NCBI GenBank assembly: GCA_964470025.1
Contig: CAYXZR010000006.1
Span: forward strand, 1-35,912
DNA length: 35,912 nucleotides
Direction: 5' to 3'
DNA from: an uncultured Gammaproteobacteria bacterium
GTDB taxonomy: Bacteria; Patescibacteriota; Patescibacteriia; Buchananbacterales; UBA6539
Position 1 is the stretch's first letter. Each line of letters starts with the position of its first letter. Shown here one piece after another: positions 26,541 through 35,912 of the stretch. Position numbers and translations under genes: made by a program. The notes under the pieces are model-generated. The model ran no database searches. It saw nothing but the letters and a program-made list of their open reading frames with translations, and was not told the DNA's origin.

Positions 26541-26617
26541 TGGTCGGGCTGGCCGGACTTGAACCGGCGACCTCACGCACCCCATGCGTACGCGCTAGCC
26601 AACTGCGCTACAGCCCG
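26541..26617 (-). tRNA. tRNA-Pro (anticodon GGG), CCA encoded
   Basis: Hand-folded cloverleaf with anticodon loop AUGGGGU. It has C1:G72 and A73, as in bacterial tRNA-Pro. Confidence 0.9.
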
Positions 26618-26651
26618 TATAGTGGGTGCCTACTACTATTGTACCGATAAT

Positions 26652-26684
26652 AAAACAACCACGCAAATCGTGGTATTTTTATTT
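26652..26684. terminator. bidirectional terminator-like hairpin upstream of tRNA-Pro(GGG)
   Basis: ACCACG-CAAAT-CGTGGT is flanked by an A-run on one side and a T-run on the other. It reads as hairpin plus U-tract on both strands. Confidence 0.5.
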
Positions 26685-26832
26685 GAACTTCACTGCGGCC
26701 GCAAGATTTTGGCTTTGTTACAGCCGGCCATGTCGGACATGATCGCCGATAAATAAAGTATTACGTCTACTTATGGTAACCACATACGTATTTGACCTTA
26801 TGGGTCCGCAGAATACTTGCCGCAGCAAGATA

Positions 26833-26892
26833 TCATTTGTTCCCTACTCCAACGATTGTCCCAAAACTTAACAAACCATCAGTGAAGTTCAT
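26833..26892 (-). CDS. possible 19-aa leaderless small ORF (MNFTDGLLSFGTIVGVGNK, TGA stop)
   Basis: The ATG lies 4 nt after a predicted -10 box. There is no SD sequence. Coding status is unproven. Confidence 0.2.
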   Translation of the reverse strand: MNFTDGLLSFGTIVGVGNK

Positions 26893-26896
26893 AGTT

Positions 26897-26925
26897 AGTT
26901 TACCATTCATGGAAATGATGGTCAA
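26897..26925 (-). promoter_or_regulatory. sigma70-like promoter (TTGACC-17-TAAACT)
   Basis: It abuts the aroG terminator T-run, the same architecture as six other sites in the window. Confidence 0.4.
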
Positions 26926-26956
26926 AATAAAAATCCGACAAGAAAATCTTGTCGGA
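26926..26956 (-). terminator. intrinsic terminator after the DAHP synthase gene
   Basis: Minus strand reads TCCGACAAG-ATTTT-CTTGTCGGA followed by TTTTTATTTTG. Confidence 0.75.
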
Positions 26957-26975: not shown

Positions 26976-28049
26976 CTACACCAGCATTTCGTATGCTTCT
27001 GCTAGCAAGCTAGCGGTTGCATCCCAATCCAAACATGGGTCAGTGATTGAAGTGCCATACCGCAGCTTGCGCAATGCGTCGGGTGCTGGAGAAAACTTTT
27101 GACTCCCTCCATTAATGTGACTTTCCAGCATGAGGCCCATGATAGTAGGATTGTTCGCACGGCGCTGACGAAGCACTGCTTTGAAAATTCCTGGTTGCGC
27201 AGTTGCGTCTTTACCAGAGTTTGCATGACTGCAGTCAACCATGATGCGGTCATTAACCCCAGCCTCCTGACACTTCATTGCCACTGCAGCTATTTCCTGC
27301 TCGCCGTAGTTTGAGCCACCCGAACCTCCGCGTAAGACGATGTGTCCAAAGCGATTGCCAGCGGTGGTTAGGGTTGAGACATGACCTGCGCCGTTAATAC
27401 CTAGAAAGCAGTGCTTACCAGCTGCAGCTAACATGCCGTGAATGGCAAGATCTACACTACCTCCCGTGCCGTTCTTGAATCCAAATGGCATGGAAAGCCC
27501 GCTTGCCATCTGTCGATGTGTTTGACTTTCAGCAGTGCGCGCTCCAAGGCATGCCCAGCTGATAACATCGGAAGTGTAGGCTGGGACGATCGGGTCCAAG
27601 AACTCGGTGCCGGTTGGCAAGCCCAGTTCATTGATGGCGATGAGGATTTTACGTGCCTGCTGAAACCCCTCTCGCACGTTAAACGAACCATTCAGCCAAG
27701 GATCGTTGATTAAGCCAGTCCAACCAAGTGTAGTACGCGGCTTCTCGAAGTAAGTTCGCATAAGGATTTCCATGCGATCTGCATAAGTCTGACGAAGCTC
27801 AACGAGACGCTCTGCGTAGTCGAGTGCAGCCTTTTCATCATGAATAGAGCATGGCCCCACAAGTACCAGTAACCGATTGTCTTCGCCGGTGATAATACGA
27901 CGAATTGCCTCTCGAGAAGCAGTGACAGTCTCTGCGGCTACATCAGTAATGGGAAGCATCTCAAGCACCCTATCAGGCGGGAGAAGCTCAGTGGTGCCAG
28001 TAATATTGAGATTATTAGTCCTTAAGTGTTCTGCAACTGCATTTGTCAT
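26976..28049 (-). CDS. aroG: 3-deoxy-7-phosphoheptulonate (DAHP) synthase, class I alpha (AroG/F/H type)
   Basis: 357 aa with GPCSIHD, KPRT, GARTAESQTHRQ and DCSHANS motifs, preceded by an AGGAGA SD. The isozyme specificity is not known. Confidence 0.92.
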   Translation of the reverse strand: MTNAVAEHLRTNNLNITGTTELLPPDRVLEMLPITDVAAETVTASREAIRRIITGEDNRLLVLVGPCSIHDEKAALDYAERLVELRQTYADRMEILMRTYFEKPRTTLGWTGLINDPWLNGSFNVREGFQQARKILIAINELGLPTGTEFLDPIVPAYTSDVISWACLGARTAESQTHRQMASGLSMPFGFKNGTGGSVDLAIHGMLAAAGKHCFLGINGAGHVSTLTTAGNRFGHIVLRGGSGGSNYGEQEIAAVAMKCQEAGVNDRIMVDCSHANSGKDATAQPGIFKAVLRQRRANNPTIMGLMLESHINGGSQKFSPAPDALRKLRYGTSITDPCLDWDATASLLAEAYEMLV

Positions 28050-28167
28050 AAGTGTATTCTCCTGACATTGGTGGAAGTGGCGGTACTATGTACTGCGGTT
28101 ACAATTTACTGCTTGTGATTCTTGTGATTGTTGTGCCCTGTAGTTCCTTTTTTAATGTAATGTGCGA

Positions 28168-28199
28168 TAAACAAAAAACTGACCTTTTTTAGACCAGTT
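28168..28199 (-). terminator. attenuator terminator in the DAHP synthase leader
   Basis: Minus strand reads AACTGGTCT-AAAAA-AGGTCAGTT followed by TTTTTTGTTTATC. Confidence 0.65.
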
Positions 28200-28232
28200 G
28201 CTTTGATACGTATTCACGACAAACTAACTGAT

Positions 28233-28286
28233 CTATAGGTCAGTAAAGAAAAAGCTAAAGAAATAGTTAGAATGTTGTGCTTTCAT
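28233..28286 (-). CDS. Phe/Tyr-rich leader peptide MKAQHSNYFFSFFFTDL
   Basis: 17 codons, checked codon by codon. There are 5 Phe in 6 consecutive positions, preceded by Tyr, with a TAG stop at 28235-28233. Confidence 0.7.
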   Translation of the reverse strand: MKAQHSNYFFSFFFTDL

Positions 28287-28296
28287 ATCTATTTTG

Positions 28297-28325
28297 AGCT
28301 TATACCTCAGAGTATGATTTGTCAA
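28297..28325 (-). promoter_or_regulatory. promoter (TTGACA, then -10 TATAAG/TAAGCT)
   Basis: It abuts the leuA terminator T-run and sits ~10 nt upstream of the leader ATG. Confidence 0.45.
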
Positions 28326-28330
28326 GAAAA

Positions 28331-28360
28331 TAAAAAAGGACCGCCAAAATGGTGGTCCTT
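28331..28360 (-). terminator. intrinsic terminator after leuA
   Basis: Minus strand reads AAGGACCACC-ATTTT-GGCGGTCCTT followed by TTTTTATTTTC. Confidence 0.7.
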
Positions 28361-28370
28361 AAAAGAACGA

Positions 28371-30068
28371 TTATCCCTGTGTTTTAAGGACTTTCTTGGA
28401 ACGACTGATGGCAGCGAGAATCGCCTTGATATTTACATTGCTTGAGTTAGTATCAAGCGCAGCACCCCAGACTTCGACATCGCCAAACGTAAGTTTAACA
28501 AACGATACAGCTGCAGCCTCTGAGCCTAAGCCAGTTGTTGAATCGACAAAATCGACCACCTTAAACCCATTAACTCCAAACTCAGCAAGACCATTCACAA
28601 ATGCATTGATTGGGCCATTACCAGTTCCGATGACTTGCTGCTCACTGCCTTCGACATTGATTTTAGCAAAGACAGTCACCTCGTCACCATCTTGGTTACT
28701 AGAGAACTTAACTAAGGTATGACTACCAGTTGGCTGCATAAATTCATCTTTAAACCATGCCATCACCTGCTCTGCTGTTGCTTCGCCTGCATTGTGATCA
28801 AGATATCCCTGAATCACCTGCCTGACAAATGGTTGAGCGGCTTTGGGAATACTAATGCCGTATTGCTCACGCAACACATGTGCAATGCCTCCCTTACCAC
28901 TCTGCGCATTGATACGGATGATTTTTTCAAACATCCTACCGACGTCCGCTGGGTTAATTATCAAATATGGCGCTTTCCAGCTACCATCTGGCTGGGTGGG
29001 ATTCACTAACCCCTTGCTGATTGCATCTTGGTGGGACCCTGAAAATGCAACATAGACAAGTTCTCCCACATATGGATGCCGAGGATCGATAGGCATGCCC
29101 GTAATTCTCACGACAGTTTCAACTATCTGAGAAAGATTACTAAAGTCGTACTCTAAGGGCAGTTCAATCCCCATTGCCATGCAGTTGAGAATCATAATAA
29201 CTAGGTCAACGTTTCCAGTTCGTTCACCGTGTCGAAAGAGTGTACCCTCGACTCGATCTGCGCCAGCAAGCACTGCATATGTTGCTGAAGCAGTTGCCAT
29301 GTCTTGATCGTTATGAGGATGCGCTGAAATTATCACACTCTCTCGATGAGTGAAACTGCGACAGAAGTATTCAAACTTGTCAGCAACTCGGTGAGGCCAC
29401 ATACGCTCAACAGTGGCCGGGAGATTAAATATCATGCGATTGTCAGGAGTTGCTTTGTTCCAGGCTGTAAACACAGCTTCACAAATCTCCAGAGCAAAAT
29501 CGATGTCAGTATCGGTAAATTCTTCTGGTGAGAACTCCAGATTAATCTGACTGCCAGACATCTGATCTGCAAGCATACTGATGAGCTCGACTGCATGAAC
29601 TGCTCGTGAGATTGTACTTTTTCTATCCAGCTGAAATACACCCTGCATATGCAGCTCTGAAGTGGCGATGTAGGCATGAACAATTGCCTGCTTTACGCCT
29701 ACAAGCGATTCAAAGGTTTTGCGGATCAAGTCTTCTCTGCACTGGGTGAGTACAGCGATGGTTACGTCATCAGGGATGTGGCCTTTTTCGATCAAGAGCC
29801 GAATAAACTCATAATCGTCCTGACTTGCCGAAGGAAAGCCAACCTCTATCTCCTTAAACCCAATACCGACAAGCATGTGAAAGTACTCAAGCTTCTGCTC
29901 AGGGCTCATGGGATTTTCGAGTGCTTGATTGCCATCTCGTAAGCACACGGAGGCAAATGTTACATGCGAAAACGCTTCGGCTTCGTTTCTGTCCGGCCAT
30001 GTTCGGTTGCTGAGCTTAACTGGCTGCGGGGGCCTGTACTGAGTGCGGGTAGCGACTGTAGATGTCAT
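28371..30068 (-). CDS. leuA: 2-isopropylmalate synthase, long (LeuA type 2) form
   Basis: 565 aa with LRDGNQA, HPHNDQDMATA and GERTGN motifs and a C-terminal regulatory domain. Confidence 0.88.
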   Translation of the reverse strand: MTSTVATRTQYRPPQPVKLSNRTWPDRNEAEAFSHVTFASVCLRDGNQALENPMSPEQKLEYFHMLVGIGFKEIEVGFPSASQDDYEFIRLLIEKGHIPDDVTIAVLTQCREDLIRKTFESLVGVKQAIVHAYIATSELHMQGVFQLDRKSTISRAVHAVELISMLADQMSGSQINLEFSPEEFTDTDIDFALEICEAVFTAWNKATPDNRMIFNLPATVERMWPHRVADKFEYFCRSFTHRESVIISAHPHNDQDMATASATYAVLAGADRVEGTLFRHGERTGNVDLVIMILNCMAMGIELPLEYDFSNLSQIVETVVRITGMPIDPRHPYVGELVYVAFSGSHQDAISKGLVNPTQPDGSWKAPYLIINPADVGRMFEKIIRINAQSGKGGIAHVLREQYGISIPKAAQPFVRQVIQGYLDHNAGEATAEQVMAWFKDEFMQPTGSHTLVKFSSNQDGDEVTVFAKINVEGSEQQVIGTGNGPINAFVNGLAEFGVNGFKVVDFVDSTTGLGSEAAAVSFVKLTFGDVEVWGAALDTNSSNVNIKAILAAISRSKKVLKTQG

Positions 30069-30103
30069 GATGGAACTTTTTCTCCTATTCCAAGATTGTA
30101 AAG

Positions 30104-30128
30104 ATCAAAAAACCTTCCGAGTGGAAGG
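30104..30128 (-). terminator. attenuator terminator in the leuA leader
   Basis: Minus strand reads CCTTCC-ACTC-GGAAGG followed by TTTTTTGATC. Confidence 0.65.
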
Positions 30129-30157
30129 CTGACTACTGAGTATATTTGCTACAAAAT

Positions 30158-30241
30158 TTACGCATCAATCAAACTTCCACCTTGAGGCTGGCTAAGAAGC
30201 AGGCTGAGCAGAAGTGAATTTTGTGCGTAAGAATAGTTCAT
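30158..30241 (-). CDS. Leu-rich leader peptide MNYSYAQNSLLLSLLLSQPQGGSLIDA
   Basis: 27 codons, verified, with 6 Leu in 7 positions and a TAA stop at 30160-30158. Confidence 0.7.
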   Translation of the reverse strand: MNYSYAQNSLLLSLLLSQPQGGSLIDA

Positions 30242-30254
30242 ATTGCTATTTATC

Positions 30255-30283
30255 AACCTATCTTAGATGGATTATTTTGTCAA
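30255..30283 (-). promoter_or_regulatory. promoter (TTGACA-17-TAGGTT)
   Basis: It abuts the upstream terminator T-run. Confidence 0.4.
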
Positions 30284-30314
30284 ATAAAAAAGCCTTGCTG
30301 GAACAACAAGGCTT
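30284..30314 (-). terminator. intrinsic terminator after the 100-aa ORF
   Basis: Minus strand reads AGCCTTGTTG-TTC-CAGCAAGGCT followed by TTTTTTATT. Confidence 0.7.
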
Positions 30315-30320
30315 GAAATG

Positions 30321-30623
30321 TTACTCATCCTCATCCTTGAGGATATACATAATCTCCGATGGAATCTCCGGCAAGTTGTCACCTAACAAGGTAACAATAT
30401 ATGGGATGCTTCTATCAAGTAATTCTTGGACCATGTGCCTTTGACGACTTCTTTTAGCAATAGGACCGGGCATTTGAACGCGTCTCAACAAAGTATCTGC
30501 TTCCCTAAGCTGCTGAAGAAGTCTTTTCTGAAGATACCCGGGGTCTTGCTCTCTCTGCCATACTGGTGCATTGCCCATAGTCTCTACCTGGACGACGACA
30601 CACGAATCGAACTGTCCTTCCAT
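30321..30623 (-). CDS. hypothetical 100-aa protein under a branched-chain-type attenuator
   Basis: GGAGAG SD plus its own promoter, leader, attenuator and terminator. I recognise no family. Confidence 0.6.
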   Translation of the reverse strand: MEGQFDSCVVVQVETMGNAPVWQREQDPGYLQKRLLQQLREADTLLRRVQMPGPIAKRSRQRHMVQELLDRSIPYIVTLLGDNLPEIPSEIMYILKDEDE

Positions 30624-30654
30624 GAGTAACTCTCCTTAAGATGAAATGAGCGGG

Positions 30655-30683
30655 CAAACAAAAACTAGTCTTTGTGAGACTAG
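30655..30683 (-). terminator. attenuator terminator in the leader of the 100-aa ORF
   Basis: Minus strand reads CTAGTCT-CACAA-AGACTAG followed by TTTTTGTTTG. Confidence 0.65.
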
Positions 30684-30728
30684 AATGTTTCGTTTGCTTT
30701 TTTGTGAAATTTATCGCATCAAAACACC

Positions 30729-30794
30729 CTAGTCGCTTTTGACTAGTACCACCTTAATGATTTGCTTAATCAGATTGTGTGGTTGTGTTTTCAT
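30729..30794 (-). CDS. Ile/Val/Leu/Lys-rich leader peptide MKTQPHNLIKQIIKVVLVKSD
   Basis: 21 codons, verified, with a TAG stop at 30731-30729. The last codons form a CTAGTC/GACTAG hairpin that can swap partners with the terminator arms. Confidence 0.6.
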   Translation of the reverse strand: MKTQPHNLIKQIIKVVLVKSD

Positions 30795-30805
30795 ACAATA
30801 TATTT

Positions 30806-30834
30806 AGCATATACCCGTTAAAAAGATGTGTCAA
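30806..30834 (-). promoter_or_regulatory. promoter (TTGACA-17-TATGCT)
   Basis: It abuts the cimA terminator T-run. Confidence 0.45.
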
Positions 30835-30861
30835 GAAAAAAGACCAAGTAACACTTGGTCT
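30835..30861 (-). terminator. intrinsic terminator after cimA
   Basis: Minus strand reads AGACCAAGT-GTT-ACTTGGTCT followed by TTTTTTC. Confidence 0.7.
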
Positions 30862-30867
30862 GGGTAT

Positions 30868-32409
30868 TTAAGGTGCGGTAGTTAGTCGACCGAGCAATAA
30901 TTTGTAATTAATCATCACTTCGGTAGCACGAATAGCAGCAATAACCTGATCGGTGTGAACTCCCCTTGTTTCAATCCGTACTGAATTGTCCCAGGTGATC
31001 GTTGCTTCAACAGGAGCATCAGTCTGGCCACCAGGTGGAATGTGCGCATCAAAGTCAGATAGTCGAGGGATGCTAAATGGTAATTCTAGCTGCGGCTCAA
31101 TATCTCGCAACGCATTCATGAAGGCATCATAGCCACCTGCCCCAGCAGCATGCGCTTCAAACTCTTTGTCACCTACGGCTATACGAATTGACGCAACAGG
31201 GCGGACTGACCTGTTGGTTGTGATAGTTGCGTGTGTCACCCTGAAAGCATCTTCTACTTCCAGCTTGAGAACTTTAGCAACTATGAATGGTAGATCCTCT
31301 CTGGTTACCGACTCTTTCATGTCACCGCGCCGGATAACTTCATTCAATACCAATGCTCGCTCTTCTGGACTCAGATCAAAACCAAGCTCGGCTACATTAA
31401 ACTCAATATTAGCTCTTCCAGACAGCTTACCTAGGGCATAGTGACGCGATCGACCGAAACGTTGTGGTGCAAGCACGCTGCCGTAGAGATCTCCTTTCTT
31501 GTCACCATCGGCATGTATGCCTGCTGTTTGCGTAAAAGCATTTTTTCCGAGAATTGGACAATTGGTTGCGACCTTTTGCCTACTTGCAGCTTGCACCAAC
31601 GCGCTGACAGCACTAAGCCGTGTTTCATCTACTGCGGTTTGGCGCTCAGTGTGATCACGAATAGCTGCGACCACTTCTGCCTGTGCTGCATTACCAGCGC
31701 GCTCTCCTAATCCATTTACCGTGACATGGACTCCAGCGACTCCACAACGCGCAGCGGCAATAGTGTTTGCAGTTGCAAAGCCGTAATCATTGTGCGCATG
31801 AAACTCAAATGTCAAACGATCATTATATCGCTCAAGTGTTTCTGAGAGAAACTGCTCGACCTGCCAAGGGTTTAATACCCCAAGCGTATCAGGCAACAAC
31901 ACTCGATCAACTTCCATAGTGCAGAGCGCATCAAGTAGTTGCCAAACGTACTCAGAATCATCCTTGATGCCGTTTGACCAATCCTCTAGATACACGTTAA
32001 CTGTTACCCCATGAGAACGTGCGTATGCAACAGTGTCAGTGATATCTTCTATGTGCTGCTCAAGTGACTTGCGCAACTGGCCACTGCAATGCTTACGAGA
32101 GCCTTTGCAAAGTAGATTCATCCGCTGACAGCCTGCGGCAATAAGCCAATTAACTGACAGCTCATGATCTACAAAACTCAGCACTTCAACTCGGTCTTGC
32201 ATTCCCACAGTAAGTGCCCAGTCCATAATGACTCTGACTGCTTGTTGCTCACCGTCGCTGACACGACAAGAAGCGACTTCGATTCGGTCTACTCCAACTT
32301 GTTGCAACAACATTTGTGCAATTGCCAATTTTTCTTCAGCGGCAAATGCAACTCCTTGTGTCTGTTCGCCATCGCGAAGGGTTGTGTCCATGATACTGAT
32401 TGTACTCAT
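30868..32409 (-). CDS. cimA: citramalate synthase / 2-isopropylmalate synthase family enzyme; the Ile-type leader favours CimA
   Basis: 513 aa with TLRDGEQ, HAHNDYGFATAN and GERAGNA motifs and a LeuA-type C-terminal domain. The substrate call rests on the Ile-rich leader and is an inference. Confidence 0.75.
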   Translation of the reverse strand: MSTISIMDTTLRDGEQTQGVAFAAEEKLAIAQMLLQQVGVDRIEVASCRVSDGEQQAVRVIMDWALTVGMQDRVEVLSFVDHELSVNWLIAAGCQRMNLLCKGSRKHCSGQLRKSLEQHIEDITDTVAYARSHGVTVNVYLEDWSNGIKDDSEYVWQLLDALCTMEVDRVLLPDTLGVLNPWQVEQFLSETLERYNDRLTFEFHAHNDYGFATANTIAAARCGVAGVHVTVNGLGERAGNAAQAEVVAAIRDHTERQTAVDETRLSAVSALVQAASRQKVATNCPILGKNAFTQTAGIHADGDKKGDLYGSVLAPQRFGRSRHYALGKLSGRANIEFNVAELGFDLSPEERALVLNEVIRRGDMKESVTREDLPFIVAKVLKLEVEDAFRVTHATITTNRSVRPVASIRIAVGDKEFEAHAAGAGGYDAFMNALRDIEPQLELPFSIPRLSDFDAHIPPGGQTDAPVEATITWDNSVRIETRGVHTDQVIAAIRATEVMINYKLLLGRLTTAP

Positions 32410-32584
32410 GTGCCTGCTCCTGTGGTAGTTTGTGAAAGATCAATTTGAAAAACAAGACAAACAAAAAATCCAGCTGGTGGCTGGACTCTCAAATCGTTTT
32501 GTTCAACGTTTACTAGAAAGCGGCCACCCGTGTAGGCTGGATAATAATGCTAATAATTGAAATGTTAGCGTATTGTGCTTTCAT
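32336..32584 (-). CDS. Ile-rich leader ORF MKAQYANISIISIIIQPTRVAG...; literal frame stays open for 82 codons
   Basis: ATG at 32584. There are 6 Ile in 8 positions. By manual translation the first in-frame stop is TGA at 32338-32336, inside cimA. A TAG-TAA pair (32514-32509) lies one frame off, at the position where a leader stop would be expected. This ORF is not in the supplied track, so it needs re-checking. Confidence 0.45.
32461..32484 (-). terminator. attenuator terminator in the cimA leader
   Basis: Minus strand reads TCCAGC-CACCA-GCTGGA followed by TTTTTTGTTGTC. Confidence 0.6.
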
Positions 32585-32590
32585 ATAATT

Positions 32591-32619
32591 ACTCTATCGC
32601 TTATCACCTATAGTGTCAA
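32591..32619 (-). promoter_or_regulatory. promoter (TTGACA-17-TAGAGT), 6 nt upstream of the leader ATG
   Basis: It abuts the tRNA-operon terminator T-run. The spacing predicts a leaderless or near-leaderless leader ORF. Confidence 0.45.
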
Positions 32620-32623
32620 ATAT

Positions 32624-32661
32624 AAAATAAAAAGCCCAATGAAGGTGGACCTACATTGGGC
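32624..32661 (-). terminator. intrinsic terminator closing the tRNA / structured-RNA unit
   Basis: Minus strand reads GCCCAATG-(12 nt)-CATTGGGC followed by TTTTTATTTT. Confidence 0.7.
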
Positions 32662-32701
32662 AAACTAAGAACAAAAGAACAAAACTACTAAAGAGCAAAT
32701 G

Positions 32702-32783
32702 TGGTCGGGCTAGAAGGAATCGAACCTTCGACCATGTGATGCTAGACTGCATCACACCGCTCTACCGACTGAGCTATAGCCCG
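32702..32783 (-). tRNA. atypical tRNA (82 nt with CCA) with Pro-like acceptor and an 8-9 bp anticodon stem
   Basis: The acceptor (CGGGCTA/TAGCCCG, A73), D arm (GCTC-AGTCGGTA-GAGC) and T arm (GAAGG-TTCGATT-CCTTC) are normal. The anticodon arm is TGTGATGC-AGTCTA-GCATCACA. Confidence 0.6.
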
Positions 32784-32886
32784 AGTGGAGAAAGAGCAGA
32801 TGTGGGGAATCATACTATCATCCACTCTTCCTCCGTGGGTTTGCCGGCGCAACTCTCTATGAAAGCCAGTGCCTGGCAAAAATTTC
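32784..32886 (-). ncRNA. structured spacer: 16-bp imperfect helix plus a small hairpin
   Basis: 32787-32802 pairs with 32819-32834. All three non-Watson-Crick positions are G-U on the minus strand and A-C on the plus strand. Confidence 0.45.
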
Positions 32887-32965
32887 AGGGGATGACAGGA
32901 GTCGAACCTGTGAGCTACTAAGCCACGTTGGCAAAGATACGCTCTAGCAATTAACTAACATCCCC
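32887..32965 (-). pseudogene. degenerate tRNA-Gly(GCC)-like element, no CCA
   Basis: The acceptor (GGGGATG/CATCCCC, U73), T arm (ACAGG-TTCGACT-CCTGT) and the loop heptamer TTGCCAA are all present, and that heptamer is identical to the one in the neighbouring tRNA-Gly. The anticodon and D stems do not pair, and the variable region is 11 nt. Confidence 0.5.
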
Positions 32966-33160
32966 TTTGTTGCGTCCACTACCTGTACAGCTGCCGTGCC
33001 CTGGTAGACGCAATGCTTGGGAACAAAAATTCGACGGGAGGTATGAATACCAGCAAAGAGCTGGTCCAAAAGATACGAGTGAAACTCGATCTCCAGTACA
33101 GACTGGTCCTCCCTTTGCGCTAGCATGAACGACTAAGAGTCGCTGGCATTGCGCAATAAA
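32966..33160 (-). ncRNA. structured spacer: multi-branched fold
   Basis: Helices 32970-79/33004-13, 33036-41/33108-13 (enclosing three 5-bp hairpins), 33115-20/33151-56 and 33129-34/33138-43. Confidence 0.45.
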
Positions 33161-33237
33161 TGGAGCTGCTGACGAGACTCGAACTCGCGACATCTTCCTT
33201 GGCAAGGAAGCGCTCTGACCAACTGAGCTACAGCAGC
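33161..33237 (-). tRNA. tRNA-Gly (anticodon GCC), CCA encoded
   Basis: Clean cloverleaf with loop UUGCCAA and U73. Confidence 0.9.
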
Positions 33238-33465
33238 TCTGAAATTTTTTGGGGAATGGAGTGTTCCAGGTCACCATCCCCCAAAGGTTGCAAACTTGTT
33301 ACTACTTGCAACCTGTTAGAAGCTGAGGTTGATTCCTCAAGAACTCTGTCTTTTGAGTCCGAGCAGCTACAAAGGCGCTCGCTTCCCTGCTCTACTCACG
33401 ATTACTGCTAGCCTGGCTGCGCGACTAACATCATGAGTAGCTTGCACCTGGCGCTGGTGCAAGAT
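33238..33465 (-). ncRNA. structured spacer: seven back-to-back hairpins
   Basis: Helices tile 33251-33462 almost without gaps. The coordinates are listed in the findings. Confidence 0.45.
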
Positions 33466-33542
33466 TGGCACACGTGGCCGGATTCGAACCGACGACAAGC
33501 GCATTGAGTTTTGCGCTGCTCTACCAACTGAGCTACACGTGC
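33466..33542 (-). tRNA. atypical tRNA with an 8-nt anticodon loop (AAACUCAA), G73, CCA encoded
   Basis: GCACGTG-TA-GCTC-AGTTGGTA-GAGC-A-GCGCA-AAACTCAA-TGCGC-TTGTC-GTCGG-TTCGAAT-CCGGC-CACGTGT-G-CCA. All other arms are canonical. Confidence 0.6.
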
Positions 33543-33551
33543 ACTAAAGCT

Positions 33552-33627
33552 TGGAGGACGTGATAGGATTCGAACCTACGACCAATGACTCCCAAAGTCA
33601 CTGCTCTGCCATCTGAGCTACACGTCC
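33552..33627 (-). tRNA. tRNA-Pro (anticodon UGG), CCA encoded, with non-bacterial-type G1:C72/U73 acceptor
   Basis: Cloverleaf with loop UUUGGGA. The acceptor and D arm are near-identical to those of the adjacent 8-nt-loop tRNA. Confidence 0.8.
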
Positions 33628-33914
33628 GGTGAAACTTTAGCGATTTTGAGCCCTCTCTCCGTGGACCGACCACATTTCCCTGCAGCGGAGAGAGGGCTGA
33701 CTGAGCAGGGGTACTGCCTGCAGGGAAATTTTGACTACATTGTCAAAGAAATTGATGGGTAGCGAGTCAGCTATTACGCACTGTTTCAGCTTTGGCTACT
33801 TCTAAGCCACAAGCACTCGCCACCCACCTCCTAGCCACACTATGATGGTATATCCCTTCACGGGGCCAGGAAATCTGTATATAAATATTTCAATTGCGTT
33901 TTTACGCAATTACT
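33628..33914 (-). ncRNA. ~285-nt structured 5' leader of the tRNA unit
   Basis: It contains an 11-bp helix closing a ~47-nt domain (33757-67/33815-25), interleaved perfect 13-bp and 11-bp helices (33649-33728) and a hairpin at 33892-33911. No credible ORF is present. Confidence 0.45.
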
Positions 33915-33943
33915 TTTATATATTATTTTTTACATCGTGTCAA
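33915..33943 (-). promoter_or_regulatory. promoter (TTGACA-17-TATAAA) driving the tRNA / structured-RNA unit
   Basis: Consensus -35 box, 17-nt spacer and near-consensus -10 box. Confidence 0.55.
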
Positions 33944-33950
33944 GTCATAT

Positions 33951-33978
33951 AAAAAAGTCACTGTCGTAACAGTGACTT
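33951..33978 (-). terminator. intrinsic terminator after the hydrolase gene
   Basis: Minus strand reads AAGTCACTG-TTACGA-CAGTGACTT followed by TTTTTTATATG. Confidence 0.75.
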
Positions 33979-33989
33979 AAGGTGCGAGG

Positions 33990-35549
33990 TTAGTAGGAAC
34001 TCCAATCTCCTACTGACGAGGTGTCCGGAGCTTCGAAGTTCGCGTACAGAATCCTGTCCTGCGAAATTGTGAATGAAATACTATTCGCAGTTTCTGATGT
34101 GCTCCAGCCATTAAATGTGGCGCCATCTTCTGGTACTGCGGTTAGCGTGACCATATCGCCGACGTTGTAGACTCCGCCGGGATTTTCTGGTGAAACAAGT
34201 ACATTGCCATTTCCACTTCCGAGAAGATTGACTCTGAGGACCCTTTCTGTCTCAGCAAGTTGAATTGTATGCATCTCACGCATACCATCATCAGATGTAA
34301 AGAAGAATGTCTGACGATAAGCATCGCCGGGGACTTCATATGGTGGGAAGATGTACTCGTCATCAAGCCGAGCCTCGAACCCAAGTTCGCTAGTAAAGCA
34401 GTCTGGGTTGACCGAGTTCACTGCACGATATCTGGAGTTGCGATCAGCTGGTCCGCCACCTAAGTAGTGATTACCACCGGGGACGGCAGTGAATTTCCAA
34501 TTGGCAATCTGCCAGCTGTCTGTATCGCCAGGTACTTGATAGTCATCAATGTCTTCTTGAGCGACTCCTGCGAAGCCAAACAACTTGTCACGGTAATCCC
34601 AGAAGTGCTGCGGGACAACGAGGCCATCGTTTAGTCCATGCATGACATAGACTCTGCTGACTTTATTGCCAAAGGTTGCCGCTAGTCCTGCGTGACGCTG
34701 TGGTGCACGCATTAACCGCTCCATGCTTTTTGTGGTTGTTAGGTCAGTGCTGTTGAGTGACCATGCGTTCACAATCCAGCCGGAGCCGTTGGCGTCACCA
34801 TCTGTACCGAGGGTGTAGCCGTTATTTTGCACGTCGTCTTGCGTCGAGATGAGCGTTAAGCCAGAGCCAGCATATACTTCGGCGAATGCCTTGGGTACTG
34901 CCTGAACAACTTGAAGTGCAAGGTGTGCTCCACCTGAGCCGCCAAGCATGTAAAGGCGTTGACGGTTGAGCGGCTTACCTTGATCTTCGAAATACTGAAG
35001 GGTTGCCTTCACCCCATTAATCACGTCGGCGACTTGAATATCGCCGTAATCATAGGGTGACATGTATCCCATGTTGCGGTAGAAGATTTTCACATAGACG
35101 ATGTCTTTTGTGTCCATCCACACTCGCAGCTCATTGAAGTTTGCATTTGCTGGATCATCAGCAAACACTCCTTGGTTGCTTGGACAGTCGGAAGTTCCGA
35201 TGCCGCCAAGCTCGACATACAAGCCCGTGCTTGCAGTGAGGGTTTCCATGCCGCCTTGAGGCAACACGACTACAGCTGAAATAGCAGCCGGGGTCTGTTG
35301 GCCGTCAGAGGAGCAGTTTGCAAATAGCCTTGAATCTGTGGCACCAGGATCACTGGGAACCTGCGACTCAAAAGTCAGATGCACTTTTGGATACACTGCC
35401 GGGGCAGACTTGCGTTGCACAATTGGGTTGATCTGTGGATCAAACTCAGGGACATAAAATATTTTTCCCTGAGCTTGAACGATGGCAGTCTGGAAAAGCC
35501 AGACAAGGGTTGCAAGGATTGTCATAATATAAAAGAGCGACTGCTTCAT
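33990..35549 (-). CDS. secreted alpha/beta-hydrolase (esterase/peptidase-like) with C-terminal divergent InlB B-repeat-like domain
   Basis: 519 aa with a signal peptide ending AQA-QG and a GxSxG nucleophile elbow (GGSGG). HGLNDGLVVP resembles the Asp/His region. The C-terminus LLGSGNGNVLVSP...VTLTAVPEDGATFNGWS matches the bacterial repeat pattern. Confidence 0.7.
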   Translation of the reverse strand: MKQSLFYIMTILATLVWLFQTAIVQAQGKIFYVPEFDPQINPIVQRKSAPAVYPKVHLTFESQVPSDPGATDSRLFANCSSDGQQTPAAISAVVVLPQGGMETLTASTGLYVELGGIGTSDCPSNQGVFADDPANANFNELRVWMDTKDIVYVKIFYRNMGYMSPYDYGDIQVADVINGVKATLQYFEDQGKPLNRQRLYMLGGSGGAHLALQVVQAVPKAFAEVYAGSGLTLISTQDDVQNNGYTLGTDGDANGSGWIVNAWSLNSTDLTTTKSMERLMRAPQRHAGLAATFGNKVSRVYVMHGLNDGLVVPQHFWDYRDKLFGFAGVAQEDIDDYQVPGDTDSWQIANWKFTAVPGGNHYLGGGPADRNSRYRAVNSVNPDCFTSELGFEARLDDEYIFPPYEVPGDAYRQTFFFTSDDGMREMHTIQLAETERVLRVNLLGSGNGNVLVSPENPGGVYNVGDMVTLTAVPEDGATFNGWSTSETANSISFTISQDRILYANFEAPDTSSVGDWSSY

Positions 35550-35589
35550 CGAAGTTCTCTCCTGTGTTGAGTTTTTTGAAGCTACCTAA

Positions 35590-35618
35590 CTTATACCATA
35601 AATAAAGCAAAAAATCAA
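35590..35618 (-). promoter_or_regulatory. extended -10 promoter (TTGATT-17-TGGTATAAG)
   Basis: It lies ~40 nt upstream of the hydrolase ATG, and an AGGAGAG SD follows. Confidence 0.45.
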
Positions 35619-35662
35619 TACCTGACTGCTATTTTATTAGTTTAATTAGGTTTTACGAGGTT

Positions 35663-35912
35663 TTATTGAGGATTTTTTGCCTGCTCAGGAGGTGCTGGCT
35701 TATTGTCTGGAGCTGGTACTTCCTGTGTTTCTTCAGGATACTCACAACTGTCATCATCTTGGGTAGCATCCGCGTTATAGTTAGTTGCCTCTTGGTCAGT
35801 ACAACCAAGGATTGGGTCTGGGGTTTCTTCAGGAGCAGGAGCAGGTGTTGGCGATTCTTCTTCAGGATACTCACAACTGTCATCATCTTGGGTAGCATCC
35901 GCGTTATAGTTA
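35663..35912 (-). CDS. 3' end of a secreted repeat protein (...GCTDQEATNYNADATQDDDSCEYPEE...), 5' end outside the window
   Basis: The frame is open from the window edge to TAA at 35665-35663. It holds two copies of NYNADATQDDDSCEYPEE 43 aa apart. Track ORF 35653..35898 is a different, low-complexity frame. Confidence 0.6.
   Translation of the reverse strand, partial: NYNADATQDDDSCEYPEEESPTPAPAPEETPDPILGCTDQEATNYNADATQDDDSCEYPEETQEVPAPDNKPAPPEQAKNPQ
35731..35783. repeat. 53-nt exact direct repeat, copy 1 (copy 2 at 35860-35912)
   Basis: Identical sequence cttcaggatactcacaactgtcatcatcttgggtagcatccgcgttatagtta, with a 129-nt period. Confidence 0.9.

Follow-up and report, generated by a model that had tools for sequence, protein, structure and literature searches.

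A proline-type tRNA-like gene with a sealed nine-base-pair anticodon arm at the end of an irregular tRNA operon in a metagenomic contig

The 35,912-nt stretch of contig CAYXZR010000006.1 (GenBank assembly GCA_964470025.1) analysed here, called the window, contains a tRNA-like gene of 82 nt, encoded CCA included, which runs from 32783 to 32702 on the minus strand. It is the fifth and last tRNA-like gene of a 1.3-kb minus-strand operon between a gene for a protein of 519 amino acids (aa) and cimA, and is called gene (e) below. Gene (e) genuinely derives from a tRNA and is of the bacterial tRNA-Pro type, but as a pseudo-tRNA it is unable to act as an adaptor in translation. An earlier note on this DNA, made from the letters alone, had placed the gene correctly at 32702-32783, where the minus strand is the one to read, and was right in its structural reading of a proline-type acceptor combined with an over-long, perfectly paired anticodon arm that leaves no decodable loop.

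The body of the gene is that of a normal tRNA. Divided into its structural parts the sequence reads CGGGCUA-UA-GCUC-AGUCGGUA-GAGC-G-[G UGUGAUGC AGUCUA GCAUCACA U]-GGUC-GAAGG-UUCGAUU-CCUUC-UAGCCCG-A-CCA. Every pair is Watson-Crick in the 7-bp acceptor stem (32783-32777 with 32712-32706), in the 4-bp stem of the D arm (32774-32759, followed by G26 at 32758) and in the 5-bp stem of the T arm (32729-32713), and the acceptor/T branch has the standard 7/5 arrangement. The variable loop is GGUC (32733-32730, 4 nt), the discriminator is A at 32705 and the CCA occupies 32704-32702. The bases for tertiary contacts are in place (U8, A14, G15, G18G19, A21, U54-U55-C56 and A58), and the 3' C of the variable region is able to fill the role of C48. 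The stems, conserved bases and 3' CCA that define the cloverleaf body of Rfam family RF00005 are thus all found in gene (e). Covariance-model scoring, proposed in the earlier note, gives 55.3 bits with the Rfam tRNA model (gathering score 29, E=1.9e-9), and in the alignment 13 nt are inserted at the place of the six anticodon-loop positions of the model. ARAGORN reports an 82-nt tRNA at exactly the same positions, with a label forced to Cys(GCA). The combination of C1:G72 and A73, also pointed out earlier, is present and is the acceptor identity of bacterial tRNA-Pro (PMC10404621). The acceptor differs in a single pair (6/7 identical) from that of the tRNA-Pro(GGG) gene at 26541-26617.

The anticodon arm is the part that departs from a tRNA. 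It extends over 32757-32734 on the minus strand and consists of a G-U pair followed by an 8-bp perfect inverted repeat, UGUGAUGC/GCAUCACA, around the 6-nt loop AGUCUA (32748-32743), which makes a stem of 9 bp with eight Watson-Crick pairs and one G·U. Both the minimum free energy fold and the centroid fold of the gene are a cloverleaf with this 9-bp stem and 6-nt loop, at -35.7 kcal/mol (z=-4.25), and none of 200 shuffled sequences folds as well. Forcing the canonical 5-bp stem with an open loop of 14 nt makes the fold 10.5 kcal/mol less favourable. The probability that a random 14-mer is closed by four extra Watson-Crick pairs is P=0.004, or 0.024 when G-U pairs are allowed. The loop shows no known stabilising motif, and no other copy of the arm palindrome was found within the window. 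A 5-bp stem carrying a 7-nt loop with U33, an anticodon at 34-36 and a purine at 37 is absent from gene (e). The statement in the earlier note that no standard 7-nt loop with U33 and a purine at 37 can be drawn holds for stable folds, whereas on paper the U33 loops AUGCAGU or CUAGCAU can be written, provided that the remaining 7 nt are treated as an intron-like insert. This is the route by which ARAGORN arrives at its call. Neither form is a stable fold.

There is no U-turn and no anticodon at 34-36 in gene (e) because the 7-base loop has been turned into four extra pairs and a 6-base loop. The arm is about 4 bp too long for the ribosomal decoding site. Its stem is 3-4 bp longer than the most extended ones in active tRNAs, those of Sec, Pyl and mitochondrial Ser(UCN) tRNAs with 6 bp, the usual length being 5 bp (PMC7609411). 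A match to tRNA finders together with the loss of a feature indispensable for translation is what characterises a pseudo-tRNA, and gene (e) shows both. Charging by prolyl-tRNA synthetase (ProRS) would also be affected. The enzyme recognises the anticodon bases G35 and G36 (PMC10404621), which are missing from the loop AGUCUA, and efficient charging therefore appears unlikely, judged by the Escherichia coli identity set cited in the same paper.

Several other identities were considered and rejected. The earlier note had listed an amber suppressor or recoding tRNA among its options, with CUA as the exposed triplet. These three bases are the last of the 6-nt loop, closed by a C-G pair, and lie outside positions 34-36 of a 7-nt loop, in an arm that is 4 bp over-long. 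Moreover, TAG terminates 8 of the 40 open reading frames (ORFs) of the window, including aroG in the same segment as gene (e), and the window ORFs are full length when compared with Pfam and NCBIfam models. TAG thus has its ordinary use as a stop codon, an argument against amber suppression, and this identity was discarded on stop-codon usage and on the position of CUA. An intron-containing tRNA was rejected as well, there being neither a bulge-helix-bulge of the archaeal type nor a group I intron, which in bacteria measures hundreds of nt, but only 6-7 extra nt, all of them in a bulge-free paired helix; intron families gave no match in the Rfam scan. Gene (e), with its 7/5 branch, a variable loop of 4 nt and a 9-bp stem that carries a 6-nt loop, does not agree with tRNA-Sec, tRNA-Pyl or allo-tRNAs, in which a 6-bp anticodon stem and a 7-nt loop go together with an acceptor branch other than 7/5, a long variable arm or a 3-nt variable loop (PMC7609411, PMC5389517). 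An identity as tRNAProX was rejected for want of a sense anticodon in a 7-nt loop and of a gene for the partner synthetase ProRSx; no ProRS-like gene was found in the 36-kb window. ARAGORN reports no tmRNA and Rfam gives no match to one. The match to YrlA (41.4 bits, gathering score 69) lies at 33486-33604, over two other members of the operon and away from gene (e); together with the matches to Plastid-ycf2 and miRNA families it is sub-threshold and spurious, and nothing real beyond tRNA is left in the Rfam results. A primer RNA, also among the earlier suggestions, has no support, as no reverse transcriptase gene was found nearby.

Gene (e) is a metagenomic singleton without an orthologue in the collections searched. 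The DNA-pattern scans need exact matches and would miss diverged relatives, and on these terms no second copy was found in 596 Gb of genomes, in the JGI metagenomes or in IMG/VR. An orthologue pattern made up of the acceptor, D arm, T loop and 3' acceptor with any arm length matched two loci in 185,579 species genomes and, in a slightly looser version, four in the JGI metagenomes. All six are normal 76-nt tRNA-Pro(CGG) genes from Uhrbacteria and other metagenomic contigs, which have the acceptor and D arm in common with gene (e) and are unrelated in the T stem and the anticodon stem. Neither the arm sequence nor the 3' half nor a pattern for proline-type long arms matched anything in IMG/VR, and BLAST comparison of the operon and of gene (e) with phage and plasmid records rendered generic tRNA similarity only.

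The anticodon regions are aberrant in three of the five members of the operon. A predicted sigma-70-like promoter on the minus strand, TTGACA (33943-33938) and TATAAA (33920-33915) separated by 17 nt, stands after the terminators of the upstream 519-aa gene. It was read directly from the sequence, as the automated promoter scan requires T at position 6 of the -10 element and therefore omitted it. A predicted intrinsic terminator follows directly after gene (e) at 32661-32624 (GCCCAAUG...CAUUGGGC and a U-run, minus strand). Of the minus-strand genes in between, member (a) at 33627-33552 is a tRNA with encoded CCA and a normal Pro(UGG) loop, UUUGGGA with G37. Its acceptor, with G1:C72 and U73, is not of the proline type, which makes it the mirror image of gene (e): a proline anticodon on a non-proline acceptor versus a proline acceptor without a proline anticodon. 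Member (b) at 33542-33466 is a paralogue of (a) with a perfect cloverleaf, an encoded CCA and an 8-nt loop, AAACUCAA, that has no U33; ARAGORN labels it '???' with anticodon actc. Compared with (a) it has compensatory changes at 2:71, at 51:63 and at four anticodon-stem pairs, so that all stems are kept, and the fold of (b) has therefore been maintained. Member (c) at 33237-33161 is a normal-looking tRNA-Gly(GCC) with U73 and encoded CCA. Member (d) at 32965-32887 is a degenerate tRNA-like element whose 27.3 bits are less than the gathering score set by Rfam. Its acceptor and T arm are in good order, the D arm is damaged and the CCA is missing, and its oversize anticodon region contains a 22-nt insert and retains UUGCCAA, the anticodon loop of (c).

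The regions between the genes are unusually structured. On the minus strand the folding z-scores are -5.4 for 33238-33465, -3.4 for 32966-33160, -4.9 for 32784-32883 and -3.0 for the leader at 33628-33760. The spacer just upstream of gene (e) forms a 16-bp hairpin with G-U pairs, which works on the minus strand only, and the operon leader contains a perfect 13-bp hairpin at 33698-33649. Spacers and leader match no Rfam family and have no coding potential. The idea that the spacers are decayed tRNAs found no support, as no tRNA remnants are detectable in them, and the operon has no internal repeats beyond generic tRNA similarity. Gene (e) itself is surrounded by a 15-nt direct repeat, CCACAUYUGCUCUUU, with an upstream copy (CCACAUCUGCUCUUU, 32791-32805) and a downstream copy (CCACAUUUGCUCUUU, 32704-32690) on the minus strand. 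The downstream copy opens with the CCA of gene (e), and the upstream copy follows GAUUCC, as in the T loop of the gene. This suggests that the repeat is a trace of a local duplication followed by deletion or rearrangement. In addition, a 12-nt inverted repeat, CCGACCACATTT, brackets the whole cluster at 33666-33677 and 32697-32708, so that the loop of the leader hairpin, AAAUGUGGUCGG (33666-33677), is perfectly complementary to CCGACCACAUUU (32708-32697), which comprises the 3' end of the acceptor, the CCA and the trailer of gene (e). None of 100 shuffles gave two such matches.

Genes with the same architecture are found in viral contigs. IMG/VR was scanned for tRNAs that share the D and T arm sequences of gene (e) and have 3-7 nt extra between them, and this length-biased sample comprises 75 loci with 53 distinct sequences. 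In part of these the extra length lies in the variable region of an ordinary tRNA. A sizeable group has perfect acceptor, D and T arms and an anticodon arm in the form of a capped hairpin of 7-10 bp with a loop of 4-6 nt, to which ARAGORN gives forced or '???' anticodons. The arm has 9 bp and the loop UCGCU in L033:1120-1201, located between tRNA-Ile and tRNA-Gly in a tight array, and in L051:10454-10534, which has two compensatory stem pairs relative to L033. Eight base pairs are capped by a UUCG tetraloop in L047 (6637-6715), L073, L086 and L088 and by GCAA in L053:2714-2792, which encodes its CCA and lies 94 nt from a further tRNA-like gene; ARAGORN calls both Ala(CGC). L063, L070 and L082 have a GAAA cap, and L015:1626-1707 and L020:7549-7630 have unrelated acceptor stems with the same 3+7-bp arm and tetraloop. 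L076, L077 and L054 are further examples, and one family with a 6-nt loop is found in eight contigs. In other viral families an anticodon loop of 6 or 11 nt is conserved across 8-14 contigs.

When the same arm-folding script is applied, gene (e) gives 9 bp and 6 nt, and L033, L047 and L053 give 8-9 bp and 4-5 nt. If the group is defined informally by canonical acceptor, D and T arms, an arm of at least 7-8 bp and a loop of at most 6 nt, gene (e) has all of these features. No sequence homology was found between gene (e) and the viral families, and the proline-type acceptor occurs in none of them. The viral families are small or consist mostly of near-identical copies. The thermostable tetraloops and the few compensatory changes, which were seen in two cases, nevertheless suggest that the sealed arm is under selection in at least some of the viral genes. 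The neighbourhoods of L015, L020 and L053 contain genes for an integrase, helix-turn-helix repressors, RusA and GNAT and gave no functional clue.

The operon is located in a part of the window that differs from the rest. The first 26.5 kb carry aspS, recO and the str, S10 and spc ribosomal operons, and SecY is 72-76% identical to proteins of Candidatus Buchananbacteria and Parcubacteria; by its sequence this part belongs to the Patescibacteria (candidate phyla radiation, CPR). The G+C content of third codon positions (GC3) is 0.19-0.41 in the ORFs at 83-26533 versus 0.39-0.68 in the ORFs at 26976-35898, with a sharp compositional break at about 26600-26950, beside tRNA-Pro(GGG). The genes past the break include aroG, leuA and cimA for amino-acid biosynthesis, enzymes that are atypical for CPR. 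For the segment with the tRNA operon there are two explanations, an island gained by horizontal transfer or a chimeric assembly with its join near tRNA-Pro(GGG). The different acceptors of the Pro(UGG) gene in the operon and the Pro(GGG) gene outside it likewise point to a foreign source of the operon. The best CimA homologues are 59% identical and their gene context is unrelated. The upstream gene (33990-35549, minus strand) encodes a secreted S9-peptidase-like protein of 519 aa with weak Peptidase_S9 and InlB B-repeat domains, for which no homologue was found at E<=1e-5 among 5.8 billion clustered proteins. No defence, toxin, synthetase or transferase gene linked to gene (e) was found nearby, and no recombinase or regulator gene adjoins it.

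The biosynthesis genes of the segment are preceded by three leader-peptide attenuators on the minus strand, at 28233-28286, 30158-30241 and 32513-32584. A TTGACA promoter belongs to each of them, as does a terminator (at about 28190-28160, 30129-30106 and 32490-32464). The leader peptides are rich in Phe ahead of aroG (MKAQHSNYFFSFFFTDL), in Leu ahead of leuA (MNYSYAQNSLLLSLLLSQPQGGSLIDA) and in Ile ahead of cimA (MKAQYANISIISIIIQPTRVAAF), and they have a common MKAQ...N start and XXXSXXX design. A possible fourth leader, MKTQPHNLIKQIIKVVLVKSD, is found at 30729-30794 ahead of a 100-aa ORF at 30321-30623.

Gene (e) can be compared with several known systems. The acceptor and D arm of gene (e) are identical to those of normal 76-nt tRNA-Pro(CGG) genes, but the NGG anticodon, G37 and the 7-nt loop of a canonical bacterial tRNA-Pro are missing and the anticodon stem has 9 bp instead of 5. 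In tRNAProX of Streptomyces and Kitasatospora (tRNAProA, tRNAProT and tRNAProN; PMC10404621) the proline acceptor is likewise uncoupled from a proline anticodon and the loop has odd features such as A33. These tRNAs, however, keep a 5-bp stem, a 7-nt loop and a sense anticodon (AGC, AGU or AUU) and decode on the ribosome, and tRNAProA has the dedicated ProRSx (PMC10404621), whereas the window has neither an anticodon in gene (e) nor a gene for such an enzyme. Bacillus cereus tRNAOther (PMC3399842) is another gene predicted as a tRNA that has no function in translation and is located beside horizontally acquired DNA, and it is a precedent for a regulatory role. It has no sequence relation to gene (e) and differs from it in its structural defect and in a demonstrated expression and phenotype. 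The polycistrons of irregular tRNAs in Acidobacteria and the allo-tRNAs (PMC5389517) resemble the present operon in that several irregular tRNA-like genes, some of them pseudogenised, form small operons. Metatranscriptomes contain them, and certain members accept an amino acid in vitro without being used in translation (PMC5389517). Unlike gene (e) with its 7/5 branch and sealed arm, they have 8/4 or 9/3 branches, extra loops, long variable arms and a recognisable anticodon. The Sec, Pyl and mitochondrial Ser tRNAs (PMC7609411) deviate from 5 bp in the same direction as gene (e), but by only one base pair and with a retained 7-nt loop that decodes, compared with four extra pairs and a 6-nt loop.

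The hairpin-capped genes of viral contigs have the identical architecture and often lie within tRNA clusters. Many of these use UUCG or GNRA tetraloops, and they show no homology to the arm or acceptor of gene (e). The tRNA-like domain of tmRNA, YrlA and mascRNA are examples of an acceptor/T-arm shape that is recognised by tRNA enzymes without decoding, but their topology is different from that of gene (e). Literature searches on extended anticodon stems and on bacterial and phage tRNA-like genes that lack an anticodon brought up no account of such an architecture. Both pseudo-tRNAs and operons of irregular tRNAs were known before, and a tRNA body with a sealed 9-bp anticodon arm is, as far as these searches show, an undescribed variant.

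Among the explanations for gene (e), a mutational relic without a function of its own is tentatively favoured over a maintained mimic. The gene is probably still transcribed and end-processed with its operon: it would be the last unit of a five-gene transcript running from the promoter at 33943-33915 to the terminator at 32661-32624, and ordinary tRNA end-processing enzymes could release it, because the acceptor, the D and T arms, the tertiary-contact bases and the encoded CCA are intact. Mutation by template switching in hairpins is expected to leave perfect inverted repeats behind (quasipalindrome mutagenesis). A single palindrome-forming insertion of about 7 nt, by a template switch within the anticodon hairpin of a dispensable paralogue, could thus have produced the arm in a small foreign tRNA cluster undergoing duplication and decay, and gene (e) would be a recent relic of this. 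The relic reading is drawn from the contrast between an intact body and an arm that cannot decode, from the company of the decayed (d) and of (b) with its 8-nt loop, and from the 15-nt repeat as a sign of recent duplication and deletion. It is also in line with a foreign and poorly constrained segment, as seen in GC3 and in a Pro(UGG) acceptor that departs from the C1:G72/A73 rule of the window, and with a singleton that has no partner protein nearby and no stabilising motif in its loop. Some observations speak against a relic. Outside the arm no stem pair or tertiary base is damaged and the CCA is kept, which fits selection as well as recency, and a random insertion would seldom yield four extra perfect pairs (P ~0.004). 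Member (b) keeps every stem by compensatory changes despite its aberrant loop, so irregular members of the operon seem to be structurally maintained. Viral contigs contain the same architecture again, there with thermostable tetraloops and a certain amount of covariation, which suggests that at least some of these RNAs are selected. Finally, an array in decay rests mainly on (d) and the flanking repeat because the spacers are without tRNA remnants.

These observations are accommodated by a maintained tRNA mimic, which is quite possible although given slightly less credence than the relic. Selection would then act on the tRNA body, with its RNase P substrate shape, CCA end and acceptor/T-arm surface, and the anticodon arm would be sealed as a rigid helix that keeps the RNA off the ribosome. 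Within this explanation the RNA would work through its acceptor half, either by drawing off, as a decoy or sponge, factors that bind the acceptor, the T arm or the CCA (CCA-modifying or acceptor-cleaving toxins, processing or modification enzymes), or as an amino-acid carrier for non-ribosomal reactions. The flawless body with its encoded CCA, an extension whose perfect pairing is 10.5 kcal/mol more stable than an open loop, the strong predicted promoter and terminator, the maintenance of the undecodable (b) and the many sealed-arm genes with the same D and T arms in viral contigs all agree with it. There are also precedents for expressed or charged tRNA-like RNAs outside translation in tRNAOther (PMC3399842) and the Acidobacteria polycistrons (PMC5389517). 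On the other hand, gene (e) has no homologue, so that no covariation backs its arm; it is unrelated in sequence to the viral families, and no toxin, synthetase or transferase was found linked to it. Its loop is not a stabilising tetraloop, its operon neighbours include plain decay, and the viral examples were drawn by a length-biased pattern and form families that are mostly small or near-identical copies. The wider proposal, an unrecognised class of anticodon-sealed tRNA mimics in mobile DNA and phages that stay off the ribosome and engage acceptor- or CCA-directed enzymes, with gene (e) as a member, is rather unlikely.

The remaining explanations carry little weight. The tRNA-shaped elements of the operon could be punctuation for RNase P and 3' processing, or stabilising ends for structured spacer RNAs, in which case an anticodon would not be needed. 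The strongly structured spacers at 33465-33238 and 32883-32784, the latter with the 16-bp hairpin, and the complementarity of the leader loop to the 3' end and trailer of gene (e) would suit such a handle. It is improbable all the same, as the spacers have no Rfam family or known relatives, (a) and (c) look like ordinary decoding tRNAs and 12 bp is weak evidence. A sequencing or assembly artefact, with the hairpin extension or the segment junction absent from the organism, is less probable still. The contig is a metagenomic singleton and the compositional break at about 26.6-26.9 kb lies beside a tRNA gene, a typical place for a chimeric join. A join 6 kb away would not, however, create a 7-nt palindromic insert in a tRNA that is perfect elsewhere, the promoter, the five genes and the terminator together make up a coherent operon, and assemblers, to our knowledge, do not normally invent short perfect hairpins. 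There is very little to recommend a decoding or recoding tRNA, whether an amber suppressor reading with CUA, a frameshifter, another odd decoder or the product of a 7-nt mini-intron that leaves a GCA (Cys) or AGC loop. CUA, UCU and GUC are present in the loop, the halves AUGCAGU and CUAGCAU each resemble a 7-nt loop with U33, which accounts for the Cys(GCA) call of ARAGORN, and proline-type acceptors joined to non-proline anticodons do exist (tRNAProX, PMC10404621). Against this, the closed helix is far more stable, the real loop has neither U33 nor a purine at 37, the stem is longer than in any described active tRNA, TAG is a regular stop and there is no bulge-helix-bulge. We know of no bacterial mechanism that would excise a 7-nt insert. 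Just as doubtful is a function at the DNA level, with the palindrome TGTGATGC-N6-GCATCACA as a protein-binding or recombination site in a dead tRNA gene. The perfect 8-6-8 inverted repeat, the direct and inverted repeats around the gene and the TGTGA/TCACA half-sites, which resemble those of the CRP family, could be read in this way, but the 12-bp spacing of the half-sites is wrong for CRP-type sites. Moreover, the palindrome has no second copy in the window and no recombinase or regulator gene beside it, and its position exactly replaces an RNA hairpin loop.

If gene (e) is a relic, it illustrates that one palindromic insertion can disable a tRNA and yet leave a high-scoring body for tRNA finders. 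The tRNA-Cys(GCA) label given by ARAGORN would enter automated annotation as a spurious Cys isoacceptor, which is a warning for screens for codon reassignment. If the gene is maintained, it adds a cellular, proline-type example to the sealed-arm genes of viral contigs. Should the class of mimics be true, gene (e) would be its first proline-type member and the first from an operon of a cell, and such RNAs might be decoys against toxins or defence systems that target tRNA ends, or amino-acid carriers for non-ribosomal reactions. Interest in tRNA ends is high at present, as they are attacked by many toxins and anti-phage systems. The recurrent viral genes are a more promising lead than the single gene (e).

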